NCBI GenBank assembly: GCA_018817165.1
Contig: JAHITY010000114.1
Location: 17,721 to 81,720, forward strand
Direction: 5' to 3'
DNA: 64,000 nt
DNA from: Candidatus Omnitrophota bacterium
GTDB lineage: Bacteria; Omnitrophota; Gorgyraeia; B26-G9
Under the pieces are notes generated by a model. It had not been told where the DNA came from, searched no databases, and was given only the letters and a program-made list of their open reading frames with translations. The translations under genes were made by a program, and so were the position numbers. Shown here piece after piece: positions 4,182 through 63,468 of the stretch; position 1 is the stretch's first letter, and every line of letters starts with the position of its first letter.

Positions 4182-4312
4182 GTTGCATCAGCAGGAAAAT
4201 TTGTGTCAGCGTAAAATTTATCGATCATCTTGAGTATTGAGTAGAGCGTTTAGAGTTTGGAAATAGTAATTAGAAATTAGTAATTTATTTTCTGTTTTAT
4301 AAAGGGATTTTT

Positions 4313-5458: not shown

Positions 5459-5484
5459 CAGTAAAGAAATCAGGATGATTTAAT

Positions 5485-6435: not shown

Positions 6436-6440
6436 TTTAA

Positions 6441-8889: not shown

Positions 8890-10517
8890 TGAATTTAAAA
8901 AAAATAAAATATATATCTTTAGGTTTATTTGCTTGTTTAGTTATTTTTCATATTGCAAACAATCTCTTTTTTTTAGCAAGAAATCCTTTGCCTGAGGGAA
9001 AGGATAGTTATGCTCATATAACCGCGTTTTCTAATTTTAAACAGATTATAGAAAACATTCAAAATAATCCTTTTTTTAGAAGTGAAAAAAGTTTGGTTTA
9101 CAATCTTGTATTTGTAGTTATTGATTACCCGCCATTGTTTTACATGAGTGCTTATTTGATAAATCTTCTATTAGGAAGCTTTCTGCTCAATGCTGTTTTA
9201 TTGACCAATACTTTTTATATGATTATTTTACTGCTCAGTGTTTATTTTATTGCCAATAGAATAAACCCAATAGCTGCTATTATTAGTGCTTTTGTATGTA
9301 GTATGTATCCTATTGTGTTTATAGCGTCTCGTCATTTCAGCCTTGAACTTGCTATTGCATCGATTGCGGCTTTAAGTGTTTTATTATTAATTAAAACAGA
9401 TTGTTTTTTAGATAGAAAAAACTCATTTTATTTAGGGGTTTGTTTAGGGTTAGGAATGCTTATAAAGCAGACATTTATAATTTATGTAGGCGGACCTTTA
9501 ATTTTCTATGTTTGGACAAGCTTAATTGCCGAACAACCAGTTTCGGCTAAGAATAAGAAAAAAGTTAATATAACTCTTTGTTTGCTGATAGGGGTTCTTA
9601 TTAGTTTAATATTTTACTATAATAAGGCAGTTTATTTTAATATTTTAAACAGAGCTGGGTTTATTGGTGCAGTAAATAGTGCTAATTTATTTTCTTTAGA
9701 GCATATTACGTATTATTTTCGTATATTGCCTCAGACTATTGGTTATTTTTTCTTATTGGTTCTGGTTGGTTGTTTATTTTATTTAAGAAATATAAAAGCT
9801 GAAATTAGAACAGTTTTAGGTTTATGGTTATTAGTTCCGCTTGTTTTTTTCACATTCGTGAAACTTAAATATGGTGAATATACAATTGCTTATTTACCGG
9901 CATTGAGTTTAATCAGCGGAATAGTAATATCACAGATAAGTAAAAAGACTATCCGTGTTTTAGTAATTGCTAGTATGATCTTGATAGGGGGCCTTAATTA
10001 TTATTTACTTTCTTTTAATATTGTTAGCAATTTTTATTCGACGTATTATTTACCTGTTCCTGATGTTGAATTAGCTTATTCAGAAACTACAATTAAAACA
10101 CCAGATAAACTTTTAGAAGATATTGCCTTTAGTAATTCAAAAATTGGAATTTTTTATGATACAGATCCTAATACTTTAATTTTTCCATCATATTTCATTA
10201 GGTCTGTGGGTATTAATCCTAAAAAAAACGCACAAATAGTTGAGTTTTATTTTTCTCCGGACATATTTTTTCATGTTTTGGATGACTTTGATATAATGTT
10301 TTTTATTACGCACTCCGAAGAATCATGGATAACAGAACAAAGCTTTAATCAGTTAATCTGTGAAATAAATGATAAACAAATGAATCTATTGCAAATTAAA
10401 CAGGCTGATATAATAAGGCTTATTAATTTTGTTGGTAAGTTTGCAAAACCCGATATGATAATTTTTGACAAGCCAAATAAGCAGGAAAAAATATATATTT
10501 ACAAAAGGAATAAATAA
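8889..10517 (+). CDS. Multi-pass membrane protein, GT-C superfamily glycosyltransferase-like (ArnT/PMT-like).
   Basis: At least 10 predicted hydrophobic helices in the N-terminal two thirds and a soluble C-terminal domain; start codon overlaps the stop of 8113..8889. Confidence 0.5.
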   Translation: MNLKKIKYISLGLFACLVIFHIANNLFFLARNPLPEGKDSYAHITAFSNFKQIIENIQNNPFFRSEKSLVYNLVFVVIDYPPLFYMSAYLINLLLGSFLLNAVLLTNTFYMIILLLSVYFIANRINPIAAIISAFVCSMYPIVFIASRHFSLELAIASIAALSVLLLIKTDCFLDRKNSFYLGVCLGLGMLIKQTFIIYVGGPLIFYVWTSLIAEQPVSAKNKKKVNITLCLLIGVLISLIFYYNKAVYFNILNRAGFIGAVNSANLFSLEHITYYFRILPQTIGYFFLLVLVGCLFYLRNIKAEIRTVLGLWLLVPLVFFTFVKLKYGEYTIAYLPALSLISGIVISQISKKTIRVLVIASMILIGGLNYYLLSFNIVSNFYSTYYLPVPDVELAYSETTIKTPDKLLEDIAFSNSKIGIFYDTDPNTLIFPSYFIRSVGINPKKNAQIVEFYFSPDIFFHVLDDFDIMFFITHSEESWITEQSFNQLICEINDKQMNLLQIKQADIIRLINFVGKFAKPDMIIFDKPNKQEKIYIYKRNK

Positions 10518-11579
10518 ATGCTGCGCAGTATGTGTTCACAATTAAATAATTTAATTTCTTTTCGTAAACTTTTTTCCTTTAGACAAGTTATGTCTGGGGT
10601 GAGATATTTTCCGGCTACAGTAAATTTTTTGATAACTAATAAGTGTAATCTAAATTGTAGTATTTGCTCTGCTCATGGAATGCTTGATAATAGCCAGCAG
10701 CTCTCGGCTAAGGAGATTGTGGGATTTATTAAAAAAATTTCCAGATATAAACCAGCTATTTTTTTTGGGGGAGGAGAGCCTTTTATTCGGAAAGATATTT
10801 TTGAAATTCTTGCTGCAACTAAAAAAAATGGTTTAAAGTACGGCATTGTTACAAATGGAACAATGCTTGATGAGCATAATATAAAAAGATTATTTGATTT
10901 TGCGCCTGAAATAATAATTTTCTCAGTACATGGCGATGAGATAAGTCATGATGCTAAAACAGGGAAAAAGGGGGCATTTGTAGCTTTATATAAAGCAATT
11001 AAACTTGCAGTTAAACATAAAAAGAAAACAGATATACTGCTTAATGCAGTTATAACTCAAGATAATTATTTAGATCTGGAAAAAATAGTAGTGCTGGGAA
11101 AAGAATTGGGTGTAAATAGGGTAAGGTTTGAGAATCTTATTTTTCTTTCTGAGCTGGAATATGCGCAACATTTAGCAGGGTGTGTAGGTGTTTTAAAAGA
11201 AAAACAAGCTGAAATGACTACTTATATTAAAGATATCAATTGTCCAAAAATTGGTCCTGATATGCAAAAAGAGGTTTTACGTTTAAAACAAAAGTATGGT
11301 AGTTTTGTGATATTTAAGCCTTATATGACTGATCATGAACGATCAAGATGGTTTGAACAGGGGTTTAAGTTTAATCGAAAGTGTATGTTTGTTAGGCATT
11401 CAGTATTTATAAGACCAAATGGAGATATTATTCCTTGTCAGTTTTTTTCTAATTATAAATTAGGCAATATTAAAACAGATGATCTTTCTCGTGTTTGGCA
11501 GGAGGAGAAGCGCAAAAAATTCACTAAAATCTTAAACAAGGAAATTTTACCTGGATGCATGAGGTGTTGTAAATTATGA
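10518..11579 (+). CDS. Radical SAM/SPASM-domain protein.
   Basis: TNKCNLNCSICSAHG (Cx3Cx2C), GGGEPFIRKD, C-terminal Cys-rich SPASM/twitch region (CPKIG...CMFVRH...IPCQFF...LPGCMRCC). Confidence 0.75.
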   Translation: MLRSMCSQLNNLISFRKLFSFRQVMSGVRYFPATVNFLITNKCNLNCSICSAHGMLDNSQQLSAKEIVGFIKKISRYKPAIFFGGGEPFIRKDIFEILAATKKNGLKYGIVTNGTMLDEHNIKRLFDFAPEIIIFSVHGDEISHDAKTGKKGAFVALYKAIKLAVKHKKKTDILLNAVITQDNYLDLEKIVVLGKELGVNRVRFENLIFLSELEYAQHLAGCVGVLKEKQAEMTTYIKDINCPKIGPDMQKEVLRLKQKYGSFVIFKPYMTDHERSRWFEQGFKFNRKCMFVRHSVFIRPNGDIIPCQFFSNYKLGNIKTDDLSRVWQEEKRKKFTKILNKEILPGCMRCCKL

Positions 11580-17739: not shown

Positions 17740-17886
17740 CTATAAAGGGCAGGAATAATTATTTAGGCGGGTTTGAAGCCTGATTTTGGTAGGACTGGCA
17801 AAATCAGAGATTCATCCTCGGAGTCCCGCACGATGCGGGACGAGAATGAGCCAAAATGATTGATTCCTGACAGCCTTCGATAAAGT
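17740..17886 (+). ncRNA. Copy B of the conserved ~148-bp structured element (see 4034..4181).
   Basis: Near-identical to 4034..4181; located 129 bp upstream of the GT1 gene at 18015. Confidence 0.45.
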
Positions 17887-18014
17887 GGTTATCAAAACTA
17901 AAACAGTTTGTAAAATTAATAAAGTTGAAAGTTTATAAAGTTTACAGGAATTAGGAATTAGAAAAAGGTAGAAACTAAACGCTAATCGCTATACGCTAAA
18001 AGCTGAACTATAAT

Positions 18015-20569: not shown

Positions 20570-20761
20570 CACAAAAGCAGCGGATAGCGTATAGCGATTA
20601 GCGGTTAGGGAAAGTGTGATATCCTGAAATAGGTTGACAGAAAACAGAAGGATGAGAGACGATCGCTGCGCTAGGACGATAGAGAAAAAACGGAAACATT
20701 TTTTAATAGCTAATGAAGTAATATTGTACAGTTATTTCTTGTTGTGATTTAGGGATTATTT

Positions 20762-50668: not shown

Positions 50669-52342
50669 ATGAGTTACCTGATAATTTTCATGTTAGCGAT
50701 AAGAGCTTTTATCTGTGAGAAAACTTGGCCAACTGCGGGAATTTTTTTTGATATTTGTTTTTGTTTGTGTTTTTTACTCTATATTCTAATTGATCCTAAG
50801 CTGAGAGTAAGCAGGAAATACTTTATTTATCCGCTCATTTACTCTGGCCTTTTGCTCCTGAATACATTTTTTTCAGTAAATTCCTATAATAGTCAAAATG
50901 AAATAGTTAAATTATGGGTATACATGCTCATATTTTATTTTGTTTATTGGCAGAATCAAAAAAACCGCAGACTGCTTATAGGTTCAATATGCGCCATAAG
51001 TCTGTTTATAAGCTTGCGGGCAATTTATCAGTATGCTTTCGGACTAGAATATATTAAGCAGCATTATGCATATGCCCAGATTGTTGAGCAAGGGTTTTAT
51101 GCTTTAGAAATGCTCAAACAAAAAAGAGTTGTTTCCTGGTTTTTGTCCCCAAATCTGCTTGCTGGATATTTGGTGATGATCGCCCCTTTAGCGGGAGCGT
51201 ATGGGTTTGAGAGTTTTAAACAACAAAAAATAAACCAGAGTATATTTTTCACGCTTATTTTTATTTGCTCAGCCGTGGGTTTATATTTTACGGGTTCTTG
51301 GGGTGCTTATCTGGGGTTCGCGATAGCGATGCTATTTATTATATTAAATCCTTTGGGCAATAAAACTGCTTTAATTGAAAGTCGAAAAAAGAATAATAAG
51401 TTGATCCTCGGCGGAGTTTTTTTTCTGCTTATTTTAGCCGCTTTATTCAGCCAAAGAGCCAAATATTTTATTGACCTAGCAAATCCTCAGAACTCTTTGG
51501 TGCAGCGTTTGTATTATTCGCAGGCTGCCGTTAAGATGATAAAGGAAAATCCTTTGACCGGTATTGGCTTGGGTAATTTTGGACTTGTTTATCCTCAATT
51601 CAAGCAAATAAACGCCAATGAAACAATTTACGCGCATAATATTTTTCTGCAATTATGGGCGGAGCTGGGAACGATAATTTTTATTTGTTTTATATTTTTT
51701 GCGATCTATCTATTATCCCGTTTTTTAAAAAAATTAAGACAACAGCGGGAAGTTGGTTTGATCGCGGCCAGCCTTGCTTTTTTGGTTTATAATTTTTTTG
51801 ACTATAGTCTAATGATCACTCAAAGCGGTTATGTTTTTTTTATTGTCATTGCTTGTTTATTTAAACCGCAGGAGGATTCTTACCCAGAAAAAAATAATCG
51901 ATTTACCCCAGATAATTTTTTAAATAAAACAAGTTTTATTGTAATCTGCGGAGTAATGATTATGTTTTTAACTGCGGAGTATTGCTCTCTAAGATCATTA
52001 GATAAAGCTGATCAATTTTTAAAACAAGGGCAAACAGACAAAGCTTTGGTCCTGGCAAACACAGCTTTGAAATTTAGAGTAAATAATGACCAGATATATT
52101 ATTTTATCGCAGTATGTTATCAGCAAAAAGCAGGTAAATTATTTTCTCCTACAGCAGCTGCTTATTATTGCCAAGCAATACGCTTAAATCCAAAATATGC
52201 TTTTTATTATGCCTATCTTGGGGATTATTATTTTTCGCATAAACTTTATCCGCAGGCAAAAAAAGCTTATCAGCAGGCAATAAAACATTATCCGCATAAT
52301 AAAAAATTCAAAGAAATCTATAGCCAGATACAAGGTCAATAG
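50669..52342 (+). CDS. O-antigen ligase/polymerase (Wzy_C/WaaL-like) polytopic membrane protein fused to C-terminal TPR repeats.
   Basis: IYAHNIFLQLWAELGTIIF matches the Wzy_C HN..L....E.G motif within a multi-TM region; C-terminal AYYCQAIRLNPKYAFYYAYLGDYYFSHKLYPQAKKAYQQAIKHYP is TPR-like. Confidence 0.6.
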   Translation: MSYLIIFMLAIRAFICEKTWPTAGIFFDICFCLCFLLYILIDPKLRVSRKYFIYPLIYSGLLLLNTFFSVNSYNSQNEIVKLWVYMLIFYFVYWQNQKNRRLLIGSICAISLFISLRAIYQYAFGLEYIKQHYAYAQIVEQGFYALEMLKQKRVVSWFLSPNLLAGYLVMIAPLAGAYGFESFKQQKINQSIFFTLIFICSAVGLYFTGSWGAYLGFAIAMLFIILNPLGNKTALIESRKKNNKLILGGVFFLLILAALFSQRAKYFIDLANPQNSLVQRLYYSQAAVKMIKENPLTGIGLGNFGLVYPQFKQINANETIYAHNIFLQLWAELGTIIFICFIFFAIYLLSRFLKKLRQQREVGLIAASLAFLVYNFFDYSLMITQSGYVFFIVIACLFKPQEDSYPEKNNRFTPDNFLNKTSFIVICGVMIMFLTAEYCSLRSLDKADQFLKQGQTDKALVLANTALKFRVNNDQIYYFIAVCYQQKAGKLFSPTAAAYYCQAIRLNPKYAFYYAYLGDYYFSHKLYPQAKKAYQQAIKHYPHNKKFKEIYSQIQGQ

Positions 52343-52451
52343 TAGGGGCCGATGGCTGTCGGCCCGTGACAATACCGCGCGAAATTAAAATATAAAATAA
52401 AATTTGTATAATTTTTAAACTATAACGGGCGGCCAGCCAGCCGCCCCTACT
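52340..52451. repeat. Hairpin element with terminal inverted repeats TAGTAGGGG...CCCCTACT (copy 2). Its 3' hairpin plus T-run probably also acts as an intrinsic terminator.
   Basis: 5' hairpin ggccga-tggctg-tcggcc; 3' hairpin gggcggc-cagcca-gccgccc followed by cTACTTTTATTTTCTGCTTTTTTT; the TAG stop of the upstream gene lies inside the TIR. Confidence 0.55.
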
Positions 52452-52468
52452 TTTATTTTCTGCTTTTT
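52420..52468 (+). terminator. Rho-independent terminator candidate downstream of the glycan island.
   Basis: GC-rich 7-bp stem (gggcggc/gccgccc) with a 6-nt loop, followed by a T-rich tract. Confidence 0.5.
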
Positions 52469-52707
52469 TTAATCGCAATACGCAATACTCAATACGCAAT
52501 ACGTTTTTTGCTTTTACCCTTTTCCTAATCGCTAACCGTTATCCGCTGCTTTTTACCCCATACACTATCTTGTAGTCATGCACGACTTAACCCCCTGTAA
52601 ATAGTATAATTAAATATTTTTTAAAAAAGTTATGTTTTTTAGTTGACAGACCGTGAAAAATAAAGTATATTTAGTTATGTGGAGAAAAGTGGGGGGAAGT
52701 GGGGTCT

Positions 52708-53148
52708 ATGTTCTACGGTGAATTTGAACATTCATTAGACAAAAAAAACAGAGTTATTATTCCTGCTAAGTTTCGAGAGGCAGTTAGAAATAGCTTTGGC
52801 GAGAAATTTTTTATTACTCGCGGTCTTGATGGATGTTTGTTTGTTTTTACCGAGGATGAATGGAAACGCCAGGAGCAGAAATTTAAGGCTTTATCATTTA
52901 CCAAAGCTGAAGCAAGAAGATTTAATCGTTTATTCTTTTCCGGAGCTAGTGAAATTACCTGCGATACCCAAGGAAGGGTTTTGATTCCGCAATATCTCAA
53001 AGAATTTGCCCAGATTGACAAGGATGTTTTAATTATTGGTGTTGCTAACAGAATAGAAATCTGGAGCAAACACAGCTGGAAGGAATTTTATGATAACACT
53101 AGAGAGACCTTTGAAGAGACTGCAGAAAAACTCATGGGTCTGGAGTGA
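52708..53148 (+). CDS. mraZ: Transcriptional regulator MraZ.
   Basis: MFYGEFEHSLDKKNRVIIPAKFRE and the second DxxxR-type repeat (CDTQGRVLIPQYL); first gene of the dcw cluster. Confidence 0.9.
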   Translation: MFYGEFEHSLDKKNRVIIPAKFREAVRNSFGEKFFITRGLDGCLFVFTEDEWKRQEQKFKALSFTKAEARRFNRLFFSGASEITCDTQGRVLIPQYLKEFAQIDKDVLIIGVANRIEIWSKHSWKEFYDNTRETFEETAEKLMGLE

Positions 53149-53170
53149 ACATAAACAAGAAGAAAAACAG

Positions 53171-54058
53171 ATGAGCCAACACGTTCCTGTGATGCTTAAT
53201 GAGGTTTTATCGTACTTGAAACTTTCGCCAGGGAAGGTGATCGTAGATTGTACTTTGGGGGAAGCAGGGCACAGTGAAGGCATATTGAGAAAGATAACGC
53301 CTGGCGGTCAGCTGATCGGCATAGATCAGGATGATGATGCCTTAAGTCTTAGCCGTCGGCGTCTTTCTTGTTTTGATGGATCTTTTACTCTTTTAAATAA
53401 AAATTTTCAAGGTATCAAGGATGTAATACAAAACCTTGGGTTAAACGCCATGGATGGCGTCCTTTTTGACCTTGGAGTTTCTAACCTGCAATTTACTGAC
53501 CCGGAACGCGGTTTTAGTTTTCAATTTGATGGACCGCTGAACATGCGCATGGATAAAAAAGCCCAGATAACGGCTTTTGATCTGATAAATAATCTTTCTG
53601 AAGAAGAATTGGCGAATTTGATTTTCAAGTTTGGTGAGGAAAGACTTAGCCGGAGGATCGCGCATCGGATTATCAGTCATCGCAATAAAAAAGTAATTAA
53701 TACAACTCAGGAATTAGCGGAGATCGTGGTGGAAGCGTTTCCGATAAAACAAAGATATAAAAAAATCCATCCCGCGACCAGAACTTTTATGGCTTTAAGA
53801 ATCGCGGTTAATCGTGAATTAGAAGTTCTCCAATCAGCGCTTACTGATGCGATTGATTTACTCAGTCCCGGAGGAAGAATATGTGTAATATCATTTCATT
53901 CTTTAGAGGACAGAATTGTTAAGCATGAATTTAGATCGCAGGCAAAAAATGGAGTTTTAAAAATAATTACCAAAAGACCTTTGGTGGCCTCAGAGCAGGA
54001 ATTAGCGGAAAATCGAAAAAGTCGTAGTGCCAAGTTACGGGTAGCTGAAAAAATTTAG
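53171..54058 (+). CDS. rsmH: 16S rRNA (cytosine1402-N4)-methyltransferase RsmH (MraW).
   Basis: HVPVMLNEVL...DCTLGEAGHS...FDLGVSNLQ...ISFHSLEDRIVK motifs; position after mraZ. Confidence 0.9.
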   Translation: MSQHVPVMLNEVLSYLKLSPGKVIVDCTLGEAGHSEGILRKITPGGQLIGIDQDDDALSLSRRRLSCFDGSFTLLNKNFQGIKDVIQNLGLNAMDGVLFDLGVSNLQFTDPERGFSFQFDGPLNMRMDKKAQITAFDLINNLSEEELANLIFKFGEERLSRRIAHRIISHRNKKVINTTQELAEIVVEAFPIKQRYKKIHPATRTFMALRIAVNRELEVLQSALTDAIDLLSPGGRICVISFHSLEDRIVKHEFRSQAKNGVLKIITKRPLVASEQELAENRKSRSAKLRVAEKI

Positions 54059-54085
54059 TTGTTTTTCCATAAAAGGGATTTGCTA

Positions 54086-54460
54086 ATGAGATTGAAAAAT
54101 ATCATAATATGTTTAGTTATAACTACCTCTATTTGCTTGGCTTATGTTAGACAACAAGTTGAAATAGTTAAATTGAGTTATGTTCTGCGGGATAAAGAAA
54201 AATGTTTAAATCAGCTGGTTGACCATAATAAAACTTTATTATACAATAATATGAGTCTGAAATCACCGCAGTATTTGGCAAGCATGCTTGAACAGAATAA
54301 AATGGTTTTAAGTTTTCCTGAACCAGCGGCCGTGGCAAAAGTCAGGGTAATCCGTAAGGCTCAGCAGCAATTTGCAAAAACACCGGGATTGAGTTGGAAA
54401 ACTAATCTTTTTGATGTTCTTGTTCCTAAAGCACAAGCCGCTTCAGATAAAAGAGAATAG
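54086..54460 (+). CDS. ftsL: Cell division protein FtsL (small bitopic membrane protein).
   Basis: Single TM helix then a predicted coiled-coil region; sits in the conserved position between rsmH and ftsI. The start was moved to the ATG at 54086, which has an AAAGGGA Shine-Dalgarno. Confidence 0.6.
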   Translation: MRLKNIIICLVITTSICLAYVRQQVEIVKLSYVLRDKEKCLNQLVDHNKTLLYNNMSLKSPQYLASMLEQNKMVLSFPEPAAVAKVRVIRKAQQQFAKTPGLSWKTNLFDVLVPKAQAASDKRE

Positions 54461-54524
54461 TTTTTTCTGCTTAATAGTTTAAACTTTAATTTAACATTCA
54501 TCAAAGAAGGATCAATCAACTAAC

Positions 54525-56246
54525 GTGCACAAGCGGCAGGAAAAGCTTCGTTTTGCAGTAGTATTTTTCGCTTATCTTTTTATTCTGCTGATTATTTTTT
54601 TTCGATTGCTTTATATTCAGGTATTGAATTATGATGATTATATTAAGCTTGCTGATTCTCAGCATAATCTCACTTTAAAACTTTCTCCGCAAAGAGGCTC
54701 GATCCTTGACCGCAATTTAAAAACATTTGCTATGAGCTTAAAAGTATCTTCTGTTTATGCCGTTCCTCGGGTAATAAAGAATAAATCAGAAGTTGCCGCG
54801 AAACTTTCCAAAATCTTAGATATCGATTACAATAATCTATTAGAAAAATTAAATCGTGATAAAGCTTTTGTCTGGGTTAAACGCCGAATCGATGATTCTT
54901 TGGCTGAGCGCTTAACACAGGAACCTATTCCCGGGGTTTCGCTGCTTACTGAAAATAAAAGATATTATCCGAATAATGGCTTGGCAGCTCATGTTGTTGG
55001 TTTTGCCGGCATTGATGAACAGGGCTTGTCCGGCGTGGAATTGATTTATGACAAGTATTTAAAAGGGCAGTTCGGAACAAGGTCCATGCTTCGCGATGCG
55101 AAGCAGCGGATGATGCCGGCTTTTGAATTTGAATATATTCCGGAGATAAATGGTTACAATATTGTTTTAACGATTGATCAGGTTATCCAGCATATTGCCG
55201 AACAGGCACTCGACGCGGGGTTTGCCAAAAGTAAAGCAGTCGGCGCATCGGTTATTGTCATGAATCCGGAAAATGGGGAAATTTACGCTTTGGTAAATCG
55301 TCCGGGTTATGATCTGAATGCTTTTGGCAATGCTGATCCTGAGGCCAAGCGTAATCGGGCGGTTAGTGATTATTTTGAGCCAGGCTCGACTTTTAAAATA
55401 ATTACCGCCAGCGCGGCGATAGAAGAAAAAGTTGTGGCTTTGGATGAGGTATTTTTTTGTGAAAACGGCGAGTATAAAATATCCCGCCATATTTTGCATG
55501 ATCATAAACCGCATGGAAATCTCAGTTTTGTGGAAGTTATTGAAAAATCCAGCAATATCGGTACAGTAAAAGTCGCCCAGAAATTAGGCGAAAAATTATT
55601 ATATGAATATATTAAAAGATTTGGTTTTGGCGAAAAAACAAATATTGATTCACCGGGAGAAGTCGCTGGTTTTTTTCGGCCGCTTAAACAATGGTCGAAA
55701 CTTTCTATTTCCGCCTTGCCGATTGGTCATGAAATTGGGGTAACCGTAATTCAGATGGCCCGGGCAATGGCGGTTATTGCTAATGGCGGTTATCAGGTCA
55801 ATCCGCATTTAGTTGATAAAATCATTGATAAGAATAATGAAATTATAAAAGACATTGAGTTTGAACCGCAACCGCGGATTATCAGTGAGCAGACTGCAGC
55901 AACAATGCGCGGTATTTTGAAGGGCGTTGTCGATAATGGCACGGGTAAAAGCGCGCAAGTTAAAGGATACTCCACCGCGGGAAAAACCGGTACTGCTCAA
56001 AAAGTAATCCCCGGAGAGGGATATTCGCATAGTAAATTTATTGCTTCATTTATCGGGTTTGCTCCGGTTGATAAACCAAAAGTAGTGATTGCGGTTGTTT
56101 TTGATGAGCCCAGACCGTTTTATTATGGCGGTACTGTCTGTGCTCCGATATTTAAGAACATTGCGGAAAAAGTATTAAAATATTTAGATGTGCCCATGGA
56201 AGAAGGCTTAGAAAATAGAAGTAGTGTTGTAACTGATAAAGACTAG
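54525..56246 (+). CDS. ftsI: Peptidoglycan D,D-transpeptidase FtsI (class B PBP).
   Basis: N-terminal TM anchor; SxxK (GSTFK), SxN (KSSN) and KTG (KTGTAQK) motifs; GTG start. Confidence 0.9.
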   Translation: MHKRQEKLRFAVVFFAYLFILLIIFFRLLYIQVLNYDDYIKLADSQHNLTLKLSPQRGSILDRNLKTFAMSLKVSSVYAVPRVIKNKSEVAAKLSKILDIDYNNLLEKLNRDKAFVWVKRRIDDSLAERLTQEPIPGVSLLTENKRYYPNNGLAAHVVGFAGIDEQGLSGVELIYDKYLKGQFGTRSMLRDAKQRMMPAFEFEYIPEINGYNIVLTIDQVIQHIAEQALDAGFAKSKAVGASVIVMNPENGEIYALVNRPGYDLNAFGNADPEAKRNRAVSDYFEPGSTFKIITASAAIEEKVVALDEVFFCENGEYKISRHILHDHKPHGNLSFVEVIEKSSNIGTVKVAQKLGEKLLYEYIKRFGFGEKTNIDSPGEVAGFFRPLKQWSKLSISALPIGHEIGVTVIQMARAMAVIANGGYQVNPHLVDKIIDKNNEIIKDIEFEPQPRIISEQTAATMRGILKGVVDNGTGKSAQVKGYSTAGKTGTAQKVIPGEGYSHSKFIASFIGFAPVDKPKVVIAVVFDEPRPFYYGGTVCAPIFKNIAEKVLKYLDVPMEEGLENRSSVVTDKD

Positions 56247-56286
56247 CTGAAAACTGAATACAGAGACCGGAAAAACAGCGGGCAAA

Positions 56287-56407
56287 GGTTTAACGGTAAC
56301 GAAGCCCGTATCGGTAACGTAGAACGGTTAGGGTGAAAATAATAAATTTAAAGACGACAGCCCTTACCGTAAGACGAAACGGGCATCGTAACCCTGACCG
56401 TAACCTT
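56287..56407 (+). repeat. Intergenic ~120-bp repeat D1 (direct repeat partner at 57995..58118).
   Basis: Shared blocks agcgggYaaaggt...cccgtatcggtaaYgt...cgaaacgggcatcgtaacc...taacctt in both copies. Confidence 0.6.
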
Positions 56408-56444
56408 GTGACATTGTGTCATTGTAATATAATGGAGGAGTATT

Positions 56445-57923
56445 GTGCAGGCATTTCAAGCTTTAAAAATACTAGGCAAAGATCCGGCTGATTATCAGTT
56501 TGCTGATTTTAGATTAAGAGGATTAAGTCTTGATTCAAGAACTGTGGCACCGGATTACTGTTTTGTTGCCATAAAAGGGGCTAAGAGTGATGGAACCAGC
56601 TTTATTCAGGCAGCGCTCGATAAAGGCGCGCGGCTTATTGTTCATGAAAAAAACACTAAACCGTTTAATTTCAGCTCAGCGGATTCCGCGATATTTGTCG
56701 AAGTGGACAATTCCAGAATAAGCGCGGGAAAACTGGCTGTGGAATATTTCGGAAACCCCGGGGATAAATTAAATTCAATCGGAATCACCGGGACTAATGG
56801 CAAGACCACAATATCTTATTTAATTGAGCATATTTTAAGAACTAATGGAATTAACTCTGGGATAATCGGGACAATTCAGTATAAAATATCCGATCATATC
56901 GTTCCGGCTGTAAATACAACTCCCGACGCGATGAAGATTCAGCATTTACTGCATCATATGGTTGAGCATAATTTAACGCATAATATTATGGAAGTTTCCT
57001 CGCATGCCCTGGATCAACACAGGGTAGAGGGAATAAAATTTAAAACCGCGATTTTTACTAATCTGACGCATGATCATTTAGATTATCATAAATCAAAAGA
57101 AAAGTATTTTGCGGCCAAAGCAACTTTATTTTCCGGTTTAGCAAACGATTCAACTGCGATTATAAACAGTGATGATCCTTATGCGGAAAAATTAAAGCAG
57201 CTGACAAACGCTAAGGTGCTCAGCTATGCGATTAATCACGAAAATGCGACGCTTAGAGCAAAAAATATAGCTTTAGGTATTGATAAGACAAACTTTGTTC
57301 TGGTTTGGGATAAGGCTGAATATAATATCCAGACAAACTTGATCGGCAGATATAATGTATATAATGTCCTGGCAGCAATTGCCGCGGCCATAATCGAGGG
57401 AATACCAATTGATAAAATAAGAGAATCAGTGAAAACTGTTGAGCAGGTCAGAGGCAGACTTGAGCGGATTAGGCATAATCAGGGGTTTGAGGTATTTATT
57501 GATTATGCGCATACTGATGATGCATTACAAAATGTATTAAGCACATTAGCCGAACTGAAGCCTAATCAGCTGATTACGGTTTTTGGCTGCGGTGGCGATC
57601 GCGATAAAAAAAAGCGTAGTTTAATGGGTAATATCGCAAGTAAGCTTTCTGATTTTGTTATTCTTACTAATGATAATCCCCGCGGCGAAGATCCTCAGGA
57701 GATAATCGAGCAAATTAAAAGCGGATTTGTTGGAGAGTTTAAAGCATATGAAATCATTCCGCAGCGGGATAAAGCAATTCAAAGAGCTTGCGGTTTGGCT
57801 GGGAAAAGAGATTTTGTGCTGATTGCCGGCAAGGGCCATGAAACATATCAGGTGTTTAAGGATAAAACAATTAAGTTTGATGATAAGCAAATTGCTCTGA
57901 AGTTCTTGACAGAAAATGGTTAA
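56445..57923 (+). CDS. murE: UDP-N-acetylmuramoyl-L-alanyl-D-glutamate--2,6-diaminopimelate ligase MurE.
   Basis: GITGTNGKTT P-loop; DNPRGEDP (the DNPR motif indicates meso-DAP specificity); GTG start with GGAGG Shine-Dalgarno. Confidence 0.9.
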   Translation: MQAFQALKILGKDPADYQFADFRLRGLSLDSRTVAPDYCFVAIKGAKSDGTSFIQAALDKGARLIVHEKNTKPFNFSSADSAIFVEVDNSRISAGKLAVEYFGNPGDKLNSIGITGTNGKTTISYLIEHILRTNGINSGIIGTIQYKISDHIVPAVNTTPDAMKIQHLLHHMVEHNLTHNIMEVSSHALDQHRVEGIKFKTAIFTNLTHDHLDYHKSKEKYFAAKATLFSGLANDSTAIINSDDPYAEKLKQLTNAKVLSYAINHENATLRAKNIALGIDKTNFVLVWDKAEYNIQTNLIGRYNVYNVLAAIAAAIIEGIPIDKIRESVKTVEQVRGRLERIRHNQGFEVFIDYAHTDDALQNVLSTLAELKPNQLITVFGCGGDRDKKKRSLMGNIASKLSDFVILTNDNPRGEDPQEIIEQIKSGFVGEFKAYEIIPQRDKAIQRACGLAGKRDFVLIAGKGHETYQVFKDKTIKFDDKQIALKFLTENG

Positions 57924-57994
57924 TAGTTTATGTTTTCAGTATTGCGTCGCGTGTCGTGCGTATTGAGTATAGAAAAAACAGAAGACAGAAAAAG

Positions 57995-58118
57995 AGCGGG
58001 TAAAGGTAAATGGTAATGAACCCCGTATCGGTAATGTTTAACGGTTACGGTTAAAAATTTTAAGCCGATAGACTTTACCCCCAAACGAAACGGGCATCGT
58101 AACCTTAACCATAACCTT
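57995..58118 (+). repeat. Intergenic repeat D2 (direct repeat of D1), itself flanked by ~35-bp imperfect inverted repeats (57935..57970 and 58125..58160).
   Basis: See D1. The flanking motifs agtattgcgtcgcgtgtcgtgcgtattgagtat and caatacgcacgacgtgatactcaatact are partial reverse complements of each other. Confidence 0.55.
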
Positions 58119-58171
58119 TTAGAGTAGCAATACGCACGACGTGATACTCAATACTAAATAGGGATTAATTA

Positions 58172-59563
58172 ATGTTTACAATTCAAGAAATAATCGATAT
58201 TTGCAAAGGGATTCTGATAAACCAGAATGCCGATAATAGTGTGATTGTTCAGGGTGTATCAATTGATTCTCGGACGATAAAAACTAATGATCTGTTTATC
58301 GCGGTTCGCGGGGATAATTTTGATGGACATGATTATCTTGTTTGTGCAATAGAAAAAGGCGCGGCCGCAGTTATTGTTGAAAGTCTCTGGGCTGAAAAAA
58401 ATGAGGATATTTTAAGCAAACTAAACAGTCCGATCATTGCCGTGGAAAACACAATTGCGGCTTTAGCTTATCTGGCCAAGCAGCATCGAAAAAAGTTTTC
58501 TCTTCCAGTTATTGCGGTAACTGGATCGAATGGAAAAACAACGACAAAAGAAATGATTGCCTGTGTCTTAGAGGCGAAATATAAGGTATTAAAAAGTAAA
58601 GCTTCATTTAATAATCATATTGGTGTGCCGCTTACTTTGCTTGAACTTGATTCAAGTCATCAGGTTGCGGTGATTGAAATCGGGATGAATCATAAAGGTG
58701 AAATTAGAGGCCTGGCCGCGATTGCTTGTCCGGATATCGCAGTGATTACTAATGCGGCAAACGCGCATCTTGAGTTTTTTAACAGCATTTCTGATATAAT
58801 AGAGGCAAAATGCGAATTGCTTGAGTCGCTGTCAACCAAGAGCTTCGCGATTATAAATGCGGATTGTAAGCCGTTGTATGCCAGAGCTCATGATTTTTGC
58901 ATTGACCTTAGGGGGTTTGGGATAAAAAGTGTGTGTGCTTATCAAGGATCAAATATTGTTACTCATTCCGATGGAATCGCGTTTACGGTTAATGGAAAAT
59001 ATACTTTCCGGCTGAATGTTTTAGGCGAACATAATGTTTATAATGCCTTAGCGGCAATCGCGATTGCTCAGAATTTTGAGATTGATTACAATCAGATTAG
59101 AGAACAATTGGCGAAATTTAAACCAGTATCCCTGCGCATGCAGATAATCAAGTTTCCGGGCGCGGATATTATTGCCGATTGTTATAATGCCAATCCTGAT
59201 TCTACAATGGCGGCAATAAATACTTTGCGAGCAATCCAATCAAAAGCCAAAAAAATATTTGTTTTTGGCGATATGCTGGAATTAGGTAAATTTAGCAATC
59301 AAGCGCATCAGCAAATTGGAAAACTAGTCGCGGAAAGTTCAATATCTAAACTTATTACTGTTGGCGAAAAGTCTCAATTAGCAGCTGTGGGCGCGACAGA
59401 GCAGGGGATGAATAAACAAGATGTTTATCAGTGCCAGAACGTTGAACAGGCAGCCGCTGTTTTGAAAAAAATAATAAGTCAGGATGATGTTATCTTGCTC
59501 AAAGGATCAAGAGGCATGCATCTTGAAAAAATAATTGATTTTTTAAACAATAAGAAGAAATAA
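58172..59563 (+). CDS. murF: UDP-N-acetylmuramoyl-tripeptide--D-alanyl-D-alanine ligase MurF.
   Basis: VTGSNGKTTTKEM P-loop; Mur ligase architecture; gene order. Confidence 0.9.
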   Translation: MFTIQEIIDICKGILINQNADNSVIVQGVSIDSRTIKTNDLFIAVRGDNFDGHDYLVCAIEKGAAAVIVESLWAEKNEDILSKLNSPIIAVENTIAALAYLAKQHRKKFSLPVIAVTGSNGKTTTKEMIACVLEAKYKVLKSKASFNNHIGVPLTLLELDSSHQVAVIEIGMNHKGEIRGLAAIACPDIAVITNAANAHLEFFNSISDIIEAKCELLESLSTKSFAIINADCKPLYARAHDFCIDLRGFGIKSVCAYQGSNIVTHSDGIAFTVNGKYTFRLNVLGEHNVYNALAAIAIAQNFEIDYNQIREQLAKFKPVSLRMQIIKFPGADIIADCYNANPDSTMAAINTLRAIQSKAKKIFVFGDMLELGKFSNQAHQQIGKLVAESSISKLITVGEKSQLAAVGATEQGMNKQDVYQCQNVEQAAAVLKKIISQDDVILLKGSRGMHLEKIIDFLNNKKK

Positions 59564-59573
59564 GGGATATTTT

Positions 59574-60665
59574 ATGTTTTATCATTTTCTATATGCTTTA
59601 AAAGATGTGTTTTTTGGGTTCAATGTATTTAAGTATATAACATTTCGGATTGTTGCTTGCGCGATCACTGCATTTGTTCTTAGCATTTTTCTTGGCAAAA
59701 CCGTTATTAAAATGCTTAAAAAACTTAATGTCGGGGAATCAGTCCGTAAAACCAAGGACACGGCCTCATTGTATGAACATCATAAGAATAAAGAAGGCAC
59801 TCCGACCATGGGCGGAGTATTGATTATTTCAGTTATTGTTTTATCGGTTTTATTGTGGGCGGATTTATCGAATAAATATATTTGGCTGGCTTTATTGTCA
59901 ACTGTTTGGCTGGCAATAGTTGGATTTATTGACGACTACATAAAGCTTACCAGGAAAAAATCTCGGGGGCTGACTGCAGCTGTAAAGCTCGTCGGACAAA
60001 TGGTTTTGGGAATAATCATTGGAATATTATTGTATTATGATCCCAATGTGGGAGATAGATTAGATGTGCCTTTTTTTAAGAATCTAATTGTTCATCTTGG
60101 CGTTTTTTATGTATTCTTTTCTGCTTTGGTAATAATTGGAACTTCCAATGCGGTAAACCTTACCGATGGTTTAGATGGATTAGCCATTGGATGCGTTTTA
60201 ATAGTTGCTCTTACTTATTGCGGAATGAGTTATGTTACCGGACATTATGTGATCAGCAATTATCTTCAGATTATTTTTATGCCTCATGCCGGAGAATTAG
60301 CTGTGTTTTGCGCGGCGATTTTTGGCGCTGGATTGGGCTTCCTTTGGTTTAATTGTCATCCTGCAACTGTTTTTATGGGGGATACCGGATCTTTGGCTTT
60401 GGGCGGTGCTTTAGGAACAGTAGCAATATTGATCAAAAAAGAATTACTTTTGGTGATTGTCGGGGGTATCTTTGTTGCAGAAGCTTTATCAGTAATTATT
60501 CAGGTTGTATCTTTTAAAACACGTAAAAAAAGAGTTTTTCGGATGGCTCCATTGCATCATCATTATCAGTTAAAAGGCTGGCATGAGGCAAAAATAATAT
60601 TTCGTTTTTTAATTGTGGCGATTATCTTGGCGCTATTTAGTTTATCGACTTTGAAACTGAGGTAA
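59574..60665 (+). CDS. mraY: Phospho-N-acetylmuramoyl-pentapeptide transferase MraY.
   Basis: NAVNLTDGLDGLA and HHHYQL motifs; 10 TM helices. Confidence 0.9.
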   Translation: MFYHFLYALKDVFFGFNVFKYITFRIVACAITAFVLSIFLGKTVIKMLKKLNVGESVRKTKDTASLYEHHKNKEGTPTMGGVLIISVIVLSVLLWADLSNKYIWLALLSTVWLAIVGFIDDYIKLTRKKSRGLTAAVKLVGQMVLGIIIGILLYYDPNVGDRLDVPFFKNLIVHLGVFYVFFSALVIIGTSNAVNLTDGLDGLAIGCVLIVALTYCGMSYVTGHYVISNYLQIIFMPHAGELAVFCAAIFGAGLGFLWFNCHPATVFMGDTGSLALGGALGTVAILIKKELLLVIVGGIFVAEALSVIIQVVSFKTRKKRVFRMAPLHHHYQLKGWHEAKIIFRFLIVAIILALFSLSTLKLR

Positions 60666-60834
60666 ACTTATGGCTGATAGTCAATAGTCAATGGAAGGCA
60701 AAAATTCTCTTTTAGCGGCGCTTTCGAACGTAATTTTGACAGGGATGTCAAAATAGAGAGAACGCGCGGCTGAGACTGCACGATGCAGGCTCAGGCTTAG
60801 CGAAAAGATGTGTTTTTGCCTTGGATAAAGGCAA

Positions 60835-62226
60835 ATGTATACTATGAATAGAAACATTAAAAATAAAAAAATCGTGATTGTCGGCCTTAGCCGCTCGGGA
60901 TATGCCGCGGCTATTTTGGCGCTCAAGCAAAAAGCGATAGTTTATGTCAGTGAAAATTCTGACAATAAAACTTTACGGGAAAAAGCGAAAATTCTGATTA
61001 AAAAAAATGCTTTTGTGGAATTGGGTGGCCATAATTCAGAGTTTTTTAAAGACGCTGATTTTTTTATTACCAGCCCGGGAGTAAAAAATAATGCATTGCC
61101 GATTGTTTGGGCAAAGCAAAATAAAATAAAGATATACAGTGAAATAGAATTTGCTTCCTGGTTTTGTCCTGCTCCGATTATCGCGATAACTGGTAGCAAT
61201 GGCAAAACAACAGTGACTACTTTGCTGGGAAAGGTGCTTAAACAGGCTGGGAAAAAAGTTGTGGTTTGCGGAAATATCGGCAATCCCTTTAGCGGAGAAT
61301 TTCTTAAATTTAAAAAAGCTGATTTCATTGTTTTGGAAGTCAGTTCTTTTCAGCTGGAATATATTCAATGGCTTAAACCTAAGCTGAGCATTATTTTAAA
61401 TATCACTCAAAATCATTTTGATCATCATCACGATATGGCGGATTATGCCCAGGCTAAAGCCAGAATTCTCTTAAATCAGGATAAAACAGATTATACAGTT
61501 TTAAATGCTCAGGATAATCTTTTGCGTAAAATAGCGAAAAAAACAAACGCAAAGGTTTTGTTCTTTTCAAGGAATAAGAAAATCCCTCAGCTTGCGGATC
61601 AAGATATTAATTGTTACCTGGATAAAGAAAAGTTTATTATTCGGATCGGGAAAAATAGTAAATTTGCTTTTGCATTGAATGATCTTAAAATTAAAGGTGA
61701 GCATAATCAAGAAAATGTGATGGCGGTGAGTTTGGCGGCAAAGGCTCTGGGAATAAACAATCAAGCGATTGCTGCTGTCTTGAGTAGATTTAAAGGGCTT
61801 GAGCATCGCTGTGAAAAAGTCGCGTCCATCAAGGGTATTTGTTTTGTTAATGATTCTAAATCAACCACAGTAGACGCGACGGATAAAGCCTTGTCTGTAT
61901 TTTTAGATAAATCAGTAATCCTGATCTGCGGCGGCAGGGATAAAGGCAGCAACTTTTCTGTATTAGAAAAAAAGATCAAACAAAAGGTTTTTTGCGTGAT
62001 TGCGATTGGTGAGGCTAAACCCATATTGATTTCTGCTTTTTCTCCGTATACTCAAGTCATAACCGCTGATTCTTTGAAACAAGCAGTGCAAATCGCTTTT
62101 AAACAAGCAAAATCCGGACAAAGTGTATTGCTTTCACCGATGTGTGCAAGCTTTGATATGTTTGACAATTTTGAGCATCGAGGGCAAGTTTTTAAACAAA
62201 TAGTACAAGGAATGATAAAAAAGTGA
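60835..62226 (+). CDS. murD: UDP-N-acetylmuramoylalanine--D-glutamate ligase MurD.
   Basis: ITGSNGKTTV P-loop; N-terminal Rossmann GLSRSG; gene order. Confidence 0.85.
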   Translation: MYTMNRNIKNKKIVIVGLSRSGYAAAILALKQKAIVYVSENSDNKTLREKAKILIKKNAFVELGGHNSEFFKDADFFITSPGVKNNALPIVWAKQNKIKIYSEIEFASWFCPAPIIAITGSNGKTTVTTLLGKVLKQAGKKVVVCGNIGNPFSGEFLKFKKADFIVLEVSSFQLEYIQWLKPKLSIILNITQNHFDHHHDMADYAQAKARILLNQDKTDYTVLNAQDNLLRKIAKKTNAKVLFFSRNKKIPQLADQDINCYLDKEKFIIRIGKNSKFAFALNDLKIKGEHNQENVMAVSLAAKALGINNQAIAAVLSRFKGLEHRCEKVASIKGICFVNDSKSTTVDATDKALSVFLDKSVILICGGRDKGSNFSVLEKKIKQKVFCVIAIGEAKPILISAFSPYTQVITADSLKQAVQIAFKQAKSGQSVLLSPMCASFDMFDNFEHRGQVFKQIVQGMIKK

Positions 62227-63317
62227 ACTTAAAACAATTAAGAATAAATTTAGCAGCAATAACCCTGATTCTCGTGTGTGTGGGAATTGTGATGATTTAT
62301 AGTGCTAGCGCGATTTATGCCCATGAGAATCTGGGTGATAGTGCCTATTTTCTCAAGCGTCATTTACTCTATGTTTTAATTGGATTCCTTGGTTGTTTGC
62401 TAGTTATGAGTATTGATTACCGCTTTTTTAAAAAAGCCGCAAAACCTTTGATCATAATTTCCTTTGGCTTGCTGCTATTGGTCCTTATTCCTGGTATTGG
62501 GAAAGAGGTGGGAGGTGCGCGCCGCTGGTTTCGTTTTTTTGGCATAAGCTTTCAACCTTCAGAGTTTGCTAAATTTGCGATGATTGTTTACACTGCCGAA
62601 TTTTTAAGCCGCAAGAAATCAATGGTTACTTCTTTTTTTAAGGGTTTTCTTCCTGTTTTCATGGTTCTGGGCGCGATGTGCCTATTAGTCATTGTCCAAC
62701 CTGATTTAGGAACTGTTTTAGCAATGAGCAGCATTTGTTTTATTATGTTTTTTGTTGGCGGCGTACGTTTGGCGCATATAATTTCTTTTGTGCTTTTATC
62801 TTTGCCAGGTTTGTATTTTTTGGTATTTAGTGTGCCGTATCGACGGAGAAGAATTCTTGCTTTTATTGATCCTTGGGCTGATCCGCAAGGCAATGGATTT
62901 CAAATAATTCAATCATTGGTTGCTTTAGGTTCAGGAGGGGTTAATGGCGTGGGCTTAGGTCAAGGTAAGCAAAAACTATTATATTTGCCGGCAGCCTATA
63001 CGGACTTTATTTTTTCAATTATCGGCGAGGAGCTGGGGTTTATTGGCACTGCTTCCATTGTTATTTTATTTGCTTTGTTTTTAATCCAAGCCACAAAAAT
63101 ATGCTTAAAAGCCAGTGATTCATTTGGTCAGTATTTATCTTTTGGCCTTATTTCCTGTCTGGTTATTGAAGCAATTGTTAATATGGGAGTAGTTACCAGT
63201 CTTTTACCAACCAAGGGATTGCCGTTTCCTTTTATCAGCTATGGAGGCACATCCTTGGTTTTTAATATGGTTTATGTTGGCATAATCTTGAATGTCGGCA
63301 GGGTAAGGACTAAGTAG
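62223..63317 (+). CDS. ftsW: SEDS-family peptidoglycan glycosyltransferase FtsW.
   Basis: 10-TM SEDS pattern; GGARRWFRFFGISFQPSEFAKFA; GTG start overlapping the murD stop. Confidence 0.85.
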   Translation: MNLKQLRINLAAITLILVCVGIVMIYSASAIYAHENLGDSAYFLKRHLLYVLIGFLGCLLVMSIDYRFFKKAAKPLIIISFGLLLLVLIPGIGKEVGGARRWFRFFGISFQPSEFAKFAMIVYTAEFLSRKKSMVTSFFKGFLPVFMVLGAMCLLVIVQPDLGTVLAMSSICFIMFFVGGVRLAHIISFVLLSLPGLYFLVFSVPYRRRRILAFIDPWADPQGNGFQIIQSLVALGSGGVNGVGLGQGKQKLLYLPAAYTDFIFSIIGEELGFIGTASIVILFALFLIQATKICLKASDSFGQYLSFGLISCLVIEAIVNMGVVTSLLPTKGLPFPFISYGGTSLVFNMVYVGIILNVGRVRTK

Positions 63318-63451
63318 GGGCGGCTGGCTGGCCGCCCGGTATATTACGTTGAATTGAAATAATGTAATATGAATGATTGGTATGTCAATATATTGATTAA
63401 ATTTTATTTTTATATTATGATTAACGGGCCGATGGCCATCGGCCCCTACTA
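63312..63451. repeat. Hairpin element with terminal inverted repeats (copy 3), in inverted orientation relative to 52340..52451.
   Basis: 5' hairpin gggcggc-tggctg-gccgccc is the reverse complement of the 3' hairpin of copy 2. 3' hairpin gggccga-tggcca-tcggccc then CCCCTACTA. The ftsW TAG stop lies inside the left TIR. Confidence 0.55.
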
Positions 63452-63468
63452 TTGACCAGAAAGGTCTC

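Follow-up and report, generated by a model that had tools for sequence, protein, structure and literature searches.

GTAG-tagged repetitive extragenic palindromes (REPs) form a superfamily that lies mostly downstream of open reading frames (ORFs) and is associated with REP-associated tyrosine transposases (RAYTs), as the sections of Di Nocera et al. (2013, PMC3733652) on this superfamily describe. The sections of Quentin et al. (2018, PMC6006769) on subclass 2.4 of TnpA_REP equate it with RAYT group 4 of Bertels et al. (2017). The REPs of this subclass are described there as "canonical long REP" with three G-C pairs at the stem foot, and "double foot" REPs are described as well. A unique trait is that REPs are inserted in the tnpA_REP gene itself and leave its reading frame intact, in general between HuH and Y. 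Work on catalysis by E. coli TnpA_REP is cited in both papers. The concept of the REPIN, a doublet of inverted REPs, is that of Bertels and Rainey (2011, PMC3116915). Here, we describe elements of this kind in a 64,000-nt stretch of a Candidatus Omnitrophota genome (GCA_018817165.1, contig JAHITY010000114.1, positions 17,721 to 81,720), hereafter the window. The elements at three of its intergenic sites, called copies 1 to 3, are very probably GTAG-tagged REPs arranged as inverted doublets (REPINs, or mosaics like the bacterial interspersed mosaic elements, BIMEs) and moved by a subclass 2.4 RAYT.

REP hairpins and doublets in the window

Seven G+C-rich hairpins, each headed by 5' GTAGGG(G)C, are present in the window, whose G+C content is about 33%. 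The heads are located at 3894 (+), 3943 (+), 4036 (-), 52342 (+), 52450 (-), 63314 (+), and 63449 (-), and the GTAG tetranucleotide is immediately 5' of the stem in all seven. When each is folded singly as single-stranded DNA (ssDNA), the energies range from -7.7 to -11.4 kcal/mol, and six of the seven beat at least 98% of shuffles. The stem foot is made of three G-C pairs (GGGC...GCCC) in six hairpins and of G then GGCC in REP C1. The exact octamer GTAGGGGC occurs six times in the window, always within a REP hairpin; shuffles contain 0.62 +/- 0.84 occurrences, and none of 100 reaches six. The perfect G+C-rich hairpins of the window are these REP hairpins and two in an unrelated repeat, with no others. 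A preliminary description of this DNA had reported G+C-rich hairpin elements at the three sites, and their positions, folding, and octamer enrichment confirm that they are real. It had given TAGTAGGGG/CCCCTACTA as the outer ends. The conserved end is instead GTAGGGGC/GCCCCTAC; copy 3 begins with AAGTAGGGG and copy 2 ends with CCCCTACTT.

All three sites lie between ORFs, at the 3' ends of + strand genes. Each element is composed of two inverted hairpins around an AT-rich spacer of 44, 59, or 86 nt, and copy 1 has a third hairpin beside the inverted pair. The features are as follows.

3892 to 3924, + strand: REP C1, with the GTAG head at 3894 and a 7-bp G+C stem at 3898-3917 (-10.7 kcal/mol, z -4.9); its outer foot TAGTA/TACTA is close to the "double-foot" type
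3943 to 3967, + strand: REP C2 (GTAGGGGCCGGGCTTGCCCCGGCCC), the left REP of the copy 1 doublet
3968 to 4011, + strand: spacer of copy 1 (44 nt), with weak homology to the segment just 3' of the first in-frame REP in the second RAYT subfamily (RAYT-II)
4012 to 4036, - strand: REP C3 (GTAGGGGCGCTGCTTGCCTGCGCCC), the right REP of the copy 1 doublet; the + strand reads KRAQASSAPT
52334 to 52341, + strand: GGTCAATA, the 8 nt outside the REP A head, common to copies 2 and 3
52342 to 52366, + strand: REP A (GTAGGGGCCGATGGCTGTCGGCCCG), identical to the in-frame site 1 REP of the L126 and L128 RAYTs (reads VGADGCRP)
52367 to 52425, + strand: spacer of copy 2 (59 nt), probably a strongly deleted remnant of the RAYT core (19 of 1000 in a shuffle test); similarity to RAYT cores is significant against L126 only
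52426 to 52450, - strand: REP B (GTAGGGGCGGCTGGCTGGCCGCCCG); the + strand has the hairpin followed by the terminator-like CTACTTTTATTTT
63314 to 63338, + strand: REP B of copy 3, identical to that at 52450 (-); its GTAG head holds the ftsW stop codon
63339 to 63424, - strand: spacer of copy 3 (86 nt), apparently a decayed RAYT core with a coding remnant of the HUH motif
63425 to 63449, - strand: REP A' (GTAGGGGCCGATGGCCATCGGCCCG), different from REP A at 2 loop nt
63450 to 63457, - strand: TATTGACC, the reverse complement of GGTCAATA and the outside flank of copy 3

REP A and REP B variants are common to copies 2 and 3, in mirrored order. Comparison of their inverted arms, which are 32-34 nt long and 97% and 94% complementary, confirms that the two copies are mutually inverted. 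They had also been taken for exact reverse complements, which holds for REP B (25 nt identical) and fails for REP A because of the two loop differences. The two copies end alike, 8 nt (GGTCAATA) beyond REP A and 0-2 nt beyond REP B. Their interiors had been reported to differ, but both contain AATATAAAA(A)TAAAATTT, and they represent deletion variants of a single sequence. The three hairpins of copy 1 belong to another REP subfamily. REP A and REP B differ by compensatory stem changes. Among 29 distinct variants matched by a pattern that did not fix two of the stem pairs, both of these pairs are kept in 21, and the several pair types seen there indicate compensatory change. A covariation analysis of hairpins pre-selected for pairing was dropped as circular. 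In the minimum-energy fold of the whole doublet, REP A pairs with REP B in copy 2, and separate hairpins form in copy 3.

The element ends supply stop codons to the upstream genes, as had been noticed before. The TAG of the Wzy_C/tetratricopeptide repeat (TPR) gene (52340-52342) and that of ftsW (63315-63317) lie within them, and GGTCAATA at 52334-52341 gives the Wzy_C/TPR gene its final two codons and part of its stop. Copy 3 sits between ftsW and murG, where TATTGACC ends 11 nt before the murG ATG (63469); the downstream order is murG-murC-murB-ddl-ftsQ-ftsA. The pair of copies therefore does not flank the division and cell wall (dcw) cluster, as was first proposed, because copy 3 lies inside it. 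Gene annotation is affected by these elements, which provide stop codons and make FtsW 2-3 residues shorter.

An Rfam scan of the window gave nothing at gathering thresholds, and no tRNA or tmRNA was found. In a search at E <= 1, copies 2 and 3 matched MicX (RF01808), a Vibrio cholerae small RNA family, with 25.5 and 24.6 bits (E 0.15 and 0.28; gathering threshold 75 bits). These sub-threshold matches were rejected as chance similarity between two-hairpin structures. They span 52299-52459 (-) and 63303-63452 (+), and the MicX model may itself contain REP-like hairpins.

RAYT genes with in-frame REPs and the origin of the spacers

A pattern covering REP A and REP B was scanned in one genome per species and matched at least 120 loci. 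Among the matches listed, the window's own REP variants occur in AT-rich Omnitrophota metagenome-assembled genomes (MAGs) and in a few labelled Planctomycetia or Elusimicrobia, and most matches are one identical 25-mer, GTAGGGGCGGATGGCAATCCGCCCG, in MAGs with NCBI labels of many phyla. The REP A and REP B 25-mers were also found in other Omnitrophota MAGs and metagenomes, within ORFs bearing YDYSxxGYYFIT, IMPNHxH, and WQRSFYDHIIRN. Clustering of the ORFs across the matched loci gave one recurrent family, with the motifs YDYSxxGxYFIT, (V/I)MPNHxHxI, and WQRSFxDHIIRN. These REP-bearing ORFs match Pfam Y1_Tnp, and their sole NCBIfam match is NF047646 (REP_Tyr_transpos). A single RAYT sequence had no match in the PDB, and a profile of members was needed; the best match of a 25-member profile was E. 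coli TnpA_REP (4ER8, E 4.4e-5), ahead of an IS200 transposase. A search of a protein collection found 718 homologues. Six of the nine closest are named Omnitrophota "transposase", other close matches are labelled "RayT", and the rest are nameless. The assignment to subclass 2.4 (RAYT group 4) is based on the REP type, the in-frame REPs, NF047646, and 4ER8.

Most of the 46 homologues inspected are full length (145-222 aa), and REPs are translated in frame at two fixed sites. Site 1, after NIFGEI, reads (S/P)VGA(D/N)GC(R/W)PD and corresponds to REP A on the + strand. Site 2, immediately after the HUH strand IMPNHLHCIIII, reads QRN(I/L)TGGQP(A/S)APT or NRAASQPPL and corresponds to REP B on the - strand. 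In the aligned homologues, the site 2 peptides GGQPAAPT, RAASQPPL, and RAQASSAPT come after IMPNHxHxII. Thus, the RAYT genes of related Omnitrophota have one in-frame REP before and one after the HUH motif, and this was confirmed at the DNA level in L004, L125, L126, L127, and L128. A second RAYT subfamily (P0025, P0028, P0031, P0033, and others) reads VGALLACAR or VGAALVPAR at site 1 and NKRAQASSAPT at site 2. Its in-frame REPs are the hairpins of copy 1: REP C2 translates as VGAGLAPAR, similar to the site 1 peptide VGAALVPAR of this subfamily, and REP C3 (4012-4036) has the same sequence as the two REPs that lie in frame in P0025 (L129). Because the REPs of copy 1 match the second subfamily, the window holds doublets of two REP/RAYT subfamilies. 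RAYTs with matching REPs are present in related Omnitrophota (L125-L129 and L139), in samples that include assemblies with neighbouring ENA accession numbers. The gene is single-copy in L127, the sole complete genome examined.

The spacer of copy 3 connects the window to these genes. Read on the minus strand, it can be aligned over its full length with the core between the REPs of the L128 RAYT, with a single internal deletion of 69 nt. The alignment scores 85.2, and dinucleotide shuffles score 44.2 +/- 5.0 (0 of 500, z = 8.2); four other RAYT cores give z = 4.0-7.0. The remnant on the - strand reads TNHSYYIISIQRNIPGGQPAAPT where the RAYT has MPNHLHCIIIIQRNITGGQPAAPT, and the HUH histidines have decayed. 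When RAYTs were compared with the whole window by tblastn, copy 3 alone was matched (P0023, E 4.6e-10). The spacer of copy 2 shares AATATAAAATAAAATT and TGTATAATT with the RAYT core and gives z 3.4 against L126 and 1.1-2.1 against the others. That of copy 1 gives z 2.3 (12 of 500 shuffles), and its 3' end TTATTAATAAGC is similar to TTATAAATAAAC of RAYT-II; a doublet of the copy 1 type in the relative L132 has a spacer with z 3.8 against the RAYT core. Judged from these alignments, copy 3 is an internally deleted, decayed copy of the REP-bounded RAYT core, and copies 1 and 2 are probably internally deleted copies as well. Two further candidates were rejected. The flank at L045 is not an orthologous ftsW-murG spacer, since its similarity is to RAYT coding sequence, and the spacer of an Elusimicrobia doublet (L056) gives z of about 0 against the RAYT core, with CCATCATTCAT shared with copy 3 by eye.

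Each REP is a 25-nt unit composed of the GTAG guide tetranucleotide and a 7-8-bp stem with a foot of three G-C pairs. In the mechanism that we propose, a RAYT/TnpA_REP HUH-tyrosine transposase of subclass 2.4 would recognize and cut REPs as ssDNA hairpins, and the doublet would be moved as a single unit without target-site duplication. The elements would thus be non-autonomous mobile DNA of the REPIN type, with catalysis by the RAYT assumed by analogy with E. coli TnpA_REP. The RAYT gene of the lineage carries the in-frame REP A and REP B that bracket the HUH-motif segment, and copy 3, and probably copies 1 and 2, would be deleted and decayed forms of that core, derived from the transposase gene itself. 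Doublets inserted at gene ends would then be passive relics, whose stable hairpins may still act on transcripts. More tentatively, we suggest that the RAYT gene may hold a master REPIN in its own reading frame, from which the core is copied out, so that the genomic REPINs would be deletion derivatives; the case for this proposal is somewhat less than even. If it is true, the spacers are a direct sequence record of the birth of a REPIN from a RAYT, and the mobile unit is nested inside the transposase gene, not around it. Excision of the core would inactivate the gene, and L170 and L042 may be examples.

The relics of whole RAYT genes (REPtrons) eroded in place would also leave RAYT coding sequence such as that in the spacer of copy 3, and related MAGs have RAYTs in many states of decay (L004, L042, L105, L170). 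This alternative to REP-to-REP arrival is nevertheless unlikely. Copies 2 and 3 have the same end positions, and two independent erosions to identical boundaries are not expected. No trace of N- or C-terminal RAYT coding sequence is seen at these copies, their flanks are unlike RAYT, and copy 3 is directly abutted by ftsW and murG. The shared ends and the lack of terminal RAYT sequence indicate that the arriving unit reached from REP A to REP B and was not the whole gene.

Several points weigh against movement of these doublets by a RAYT and their origin from its gene. The spacer homology is strong for copy 3 only, with z of 2.3 for copy 1 and 1.1-3.4 for copy 2. The NF047646 scores of 59-67 bits do not reach the equivalog cut-off of 80 bits. 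The difference between REP A and REP B makes the long hairpin less perfect than in classical REPINs. In the 81 kb of the source organism examined (the window, L121, and L182), no RAYT gene was found, and the 12 hairpins at five loci are a modest number. The RAYTs P0006, P0009, P0010, P0023, and P0025 trace to samples other than the source genome. Finally, a RAYT next to aroQ in L170 (2362-2622), from a JGI sample that also contains the source organism, is cut off exactly at REP B, and the elements may therefore be immobile today. L126 has an intact RAYT (1054-1653) at the syntenic position.

Decay of the RAYT genes in Omnitrophota MAGs has reached many different stages, and the breakpoints fall at the in-frame REPs. 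The gene at L042 (5912-6255) lacks the HUH core and REP B, that at L004 (1320-1886) has a frameshift and a TGA in place of a conserved Trp codon, and that at L105 (2549-2902) diverges immediately past REP B. The 25-mer GTAGGGGCGGATGGCAATCCGCCCG has at least 102 occurrences in at least 92 loci (L001-L120). Among the matches listed, the MAG labels include Bacillota, Alpha- and Betaproteobacteria, Coriobacteriales, Myxococcota, Desulfuromonadales, Chitinispirillales, and others, and judging from isolate names, the MAGs are mostly from termite gut. The 25-mer also lies in the RAYT genes of L076 and L080, where VGADGNPP is read in frame. Its spread suggests either recent horizontal spread of one RAYT/REP system in a habitat or cross-bin contamination.

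Mobility, effects on transcripts, and alternative explanations

The window sequence is contained in a 217-kb contig (ENA ERZ27247128 k141_409720), and almost all FtsW homologues with a source name are labelled Omnitrophota or Omnitrophica. We compared the dcw locus with four relatives: L131 (91% FtsW identity), L133 and L134 (88%), and L132 (85%). No REP is present between ftsW and murG in any of the four, nor upstream of mraZ in L131 and L132, and FtsW is 2-3 residues longer in all four than in the window. In the mraY-murD spacer, where the window has none, L132 has a doublet of the copy 1 type and L133 a third doublet type. The empty sites, together with REPINs at other positions in L132 and L133, indicate that the elements have moved. 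One REPIN in L133 is annotated as a gene of 55 aa. The three copies first described are also not the total. L182, which continues 7.7 kb directly upstream of the window (overlap 100% identical), has two more REP clusters with five more hairpins, including mosaic ones; REP C1 has identical copies there at 1000 and 2075. The preliminary description was to be abandoned if there were no further copies and no conservation elsewhere; these clusters are further copies, and the hairpins in related genomes show conservation elsewhere.

A side observation concerns L137 (JGI Ga0315289_10001226, 53% G+C), an unrelated, more G+C-rich contig. It has four tight doublets of the REP A/B type (3142-10841), 53-60 nt head to head, and a fifth REP within 11.7 kb, so in other hosts this REP pair can occur at high density and with short spacing.

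The elements had been called MITE-like, that is, like miniature inverted-repeat transposable elements. They are indeed small non-coding elements that moved, and their size of 94-150 nt, inverted ends, AT-rich interior, and intergenic position are those of MITEs. What does not hold is a mechanism by terminal inverted repeats (TIRs) and a DDE transposase. Border direct repeats were looked for at the element edges and none was found, and the flanks are unlike, with GGTCAATA beside one end and either TTTTATTT or TTAGTCCT beside the opposite end. This lack of a target-site duplication fits HUH/Y1 single-strand transposition, not DDE-type MITEs. Furthermore, each "TIR" is itself a GTAG-headed hairpin, and the sole coding relatives are HUH/Y1 RAYT genes. 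It is therefore highly improbable that these are classical MITEs, with short TIRs used by the DDE transposase of a full-length insertion sequence (IS) elsewhere in the genome.

An effect on transcripts can be discussed for copies 2 and 3. In copy 2, REP B followed by CTACTTTTATTTT fits the terminator consensus. A near-consensus promoter, TTGACA-17-TATATT (52643-52671), follows about 190 nt downstream, in a region that is conserved in relatives. Judged from its sequence, this REP B with the T-run is a probable terminator for the upstream glycan operon, placed before the mraZ promoter. No terminator signature was found in copy 3, which has no T-run and lies within an operon, or on the + strand in the REPs of copy 1. 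The earlier suggestion of bidirectional terminators is thus retained for REP B of copy 2, at the level of the consensus, and not for copy 3. Roles in mRNA stability have been reported for other REPs. By analogy, an influence on mRNA stability between ftsW and murG is the most that could be expected of copy 3.

The terminator-like REP B before the conserved mraZ promoter and the position of every copy at a gene 3' end could be taken to mean that the hairpins are terminators or insulators that evolved locally and were selected at gene ends, with no mobile origin. We consider this very doubtful, because exact copies of the 25-mers are found in other genomes, at unrelated loci, and within RAYT ORFs, close relatives have no REPs at these sites, and the REPs of copies 1 and 3 have no + strand terminator signature. 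As side observations, the conserved region upstream of mraZ corresponds to 52590-52700 in the window, 300-410 in L131, and 460-570 in L132, and before the mraZ start codon there are three GTGG(A/G)G-type repeats (GTGGAGAAAAGTGGGGGGAAGTGGGG) that resemble MraZ boxes.

At 100% identity, four contigs that come from three assemblies run colinear with the window through copy 2 and copy 3, and the dcw gene order and strand are the same in all four relatives. An inversion of the dcw block, which had been suggested earlier, was looked for in these contigs and relatives and was not seen. The least probable explanation, that the inverted pair is a recombination switch flipping the ~11-kb mraZ-ftsW segment, may point to the inverted arms and to Logan contig L183, whose junctions at or beside other REPs mean that REP-linked rearrangement may occur in the population, but it has against it this colinearity, the order and strand kept by the relatives, arms of just 32-34 nt with 94-97% complementarity, the absence of an invertase nearby, and the fact that inversion would separate ftsW from murG and oppose the uniform + strand orientation and GC skew.

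L183 (SRR7067536_8) itself consists of L182 9850-11689 (window 2084-3923), then 999-1538, then the reverse complement of 827-1. Its first junction is exactly the 31-nt REP C1 common to window 3894 and L182 1000, and its second is about 15 nt from another REP. The contig is a chimera of the k-mer assembly or else represents a REP-linked rearrangement or a circle junction in that sample, and the dcw block is not involved.

Other repeats are present in the neighborhood. A second repeat family of about 125-145 nt occupies spacers before glycosyltransferase genes and between mraY and murD (window 4040-4181, 17744-17885, and 60690-60830; L131 8440-8620 and 11130-11276; L182 887-1000). Two copies in the window have 97% identity. 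That between mraY and murD differs in sequence but has the same predicted fold (RNA fold z -3.7 to -4.4), in which a long closing stem is combined with two hairpins, one AU-rich and one GC-rich. The family has no Rfam match and could be a structured RNA of a new type or another small mobile element. Short-period intergenic repeats, such as CGCAATA x4.3, CTAAACG x4.9, and runs like CGCTAATCGCTA and GGTAACG, are found at window 52474-52503, 17975-18008, 20573-20608, 52525-52553, 56285-56407, 58002-58118, and 57935-58158. Analogous runs with other sequences occur in the ftsW-murG spacers of relatives (ACACAAG x4 in L131, CGCAATACG... in L132, and GAGTTAACG/CGCTAACG... in L133). Radical SAM genes form an unusually long series immediately upstream of the dcw cluster (window 46-50655 and L182 1-10004); several have B12-binding or SPASM domains, and the series is interspersed with glycosyltransferases and a Wzy_C/TPR protein.

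Comparison with known systems

The elements resemble E. coli BIMEs, which are mosaics of Y and Z REPs, in that two REP types alternate in orientation and mosaic clusters contain recombinant hairpins (copy 1; L182 785-1030). The sequences, however, are unrelated. With IS200/IS605 and its MITE-like derivatives, they share the HUH/Y1 enzyme family, subterminal ssDNA hairpins, the absence of target-site duplication, and a short conserved sequence beside one end (here GGTCAATA). In contrast to IS200/IS605, only the middle of the enzyme gene lies between the REPs, and the window copies encode nothing.

The REPINs of Pseudomonas and enterobacteria are also inverted REP pairs with a less conserved spacer, in which the doublet is the replicated unit (PMC3116915). 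Their head-to-head lengths of 71 and 110 bp compare with 94-136 nt here, and presence/absence polymorphism and a single-copy RAYT (here in L127) are common to both. The Omnitrophota doublets differ from them in that two different REP variants (A and B) form an imperfect long hairpin, the spacer is recognizable as RAYT coding sequence, and the RAYT belongs to group 4, not to group 2 or 3.

The closest system is subclass 2.4. GTAG at the hairpin foot, three G-C pairs, and an extragenic position mostly downstream of ORFs agree with the GTAG REPs and the subclass as the relevant sections of PMC3733652 and PMC6006769 describe them. The same sections also describe in-frame REPs in the cognate gene between HuH and Y, the "double-foot" type to which REP C1 is near, and a patchy spread across phyla. 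The host phylum is different: the older name Omnitrophica is absent from PMC6006769, and a literature search found no mention of REPs together with Omnitrophota. Unlike the genes in the subclass 2.4 sections of PMC6006769, those described here have a second in-frame REP before the HUH strand, so that the gene holds a complete inverted doublet.

The finding is explained by a known system, subclass 2.4-type GTAG REP doublets, here in Omnitrophota. This classification is routine, because REP/REPIN elements and RAYT enzymes are already well described, and it extends their range to an uncultivated phylum. What may be new is the probable origin of genomic doublet spacers as deletion derivatives of the REP-bracketed HUH core of a RAYT; homology between doublet spacers and the RAYT core is not reported in the sections of PMC6006769 and PMC3733652 that treat these REPs. 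Since the spacer of a REPIN can here be aligned base by base to the HUH core of its cognate RAYT, such an ancestry can be tested.

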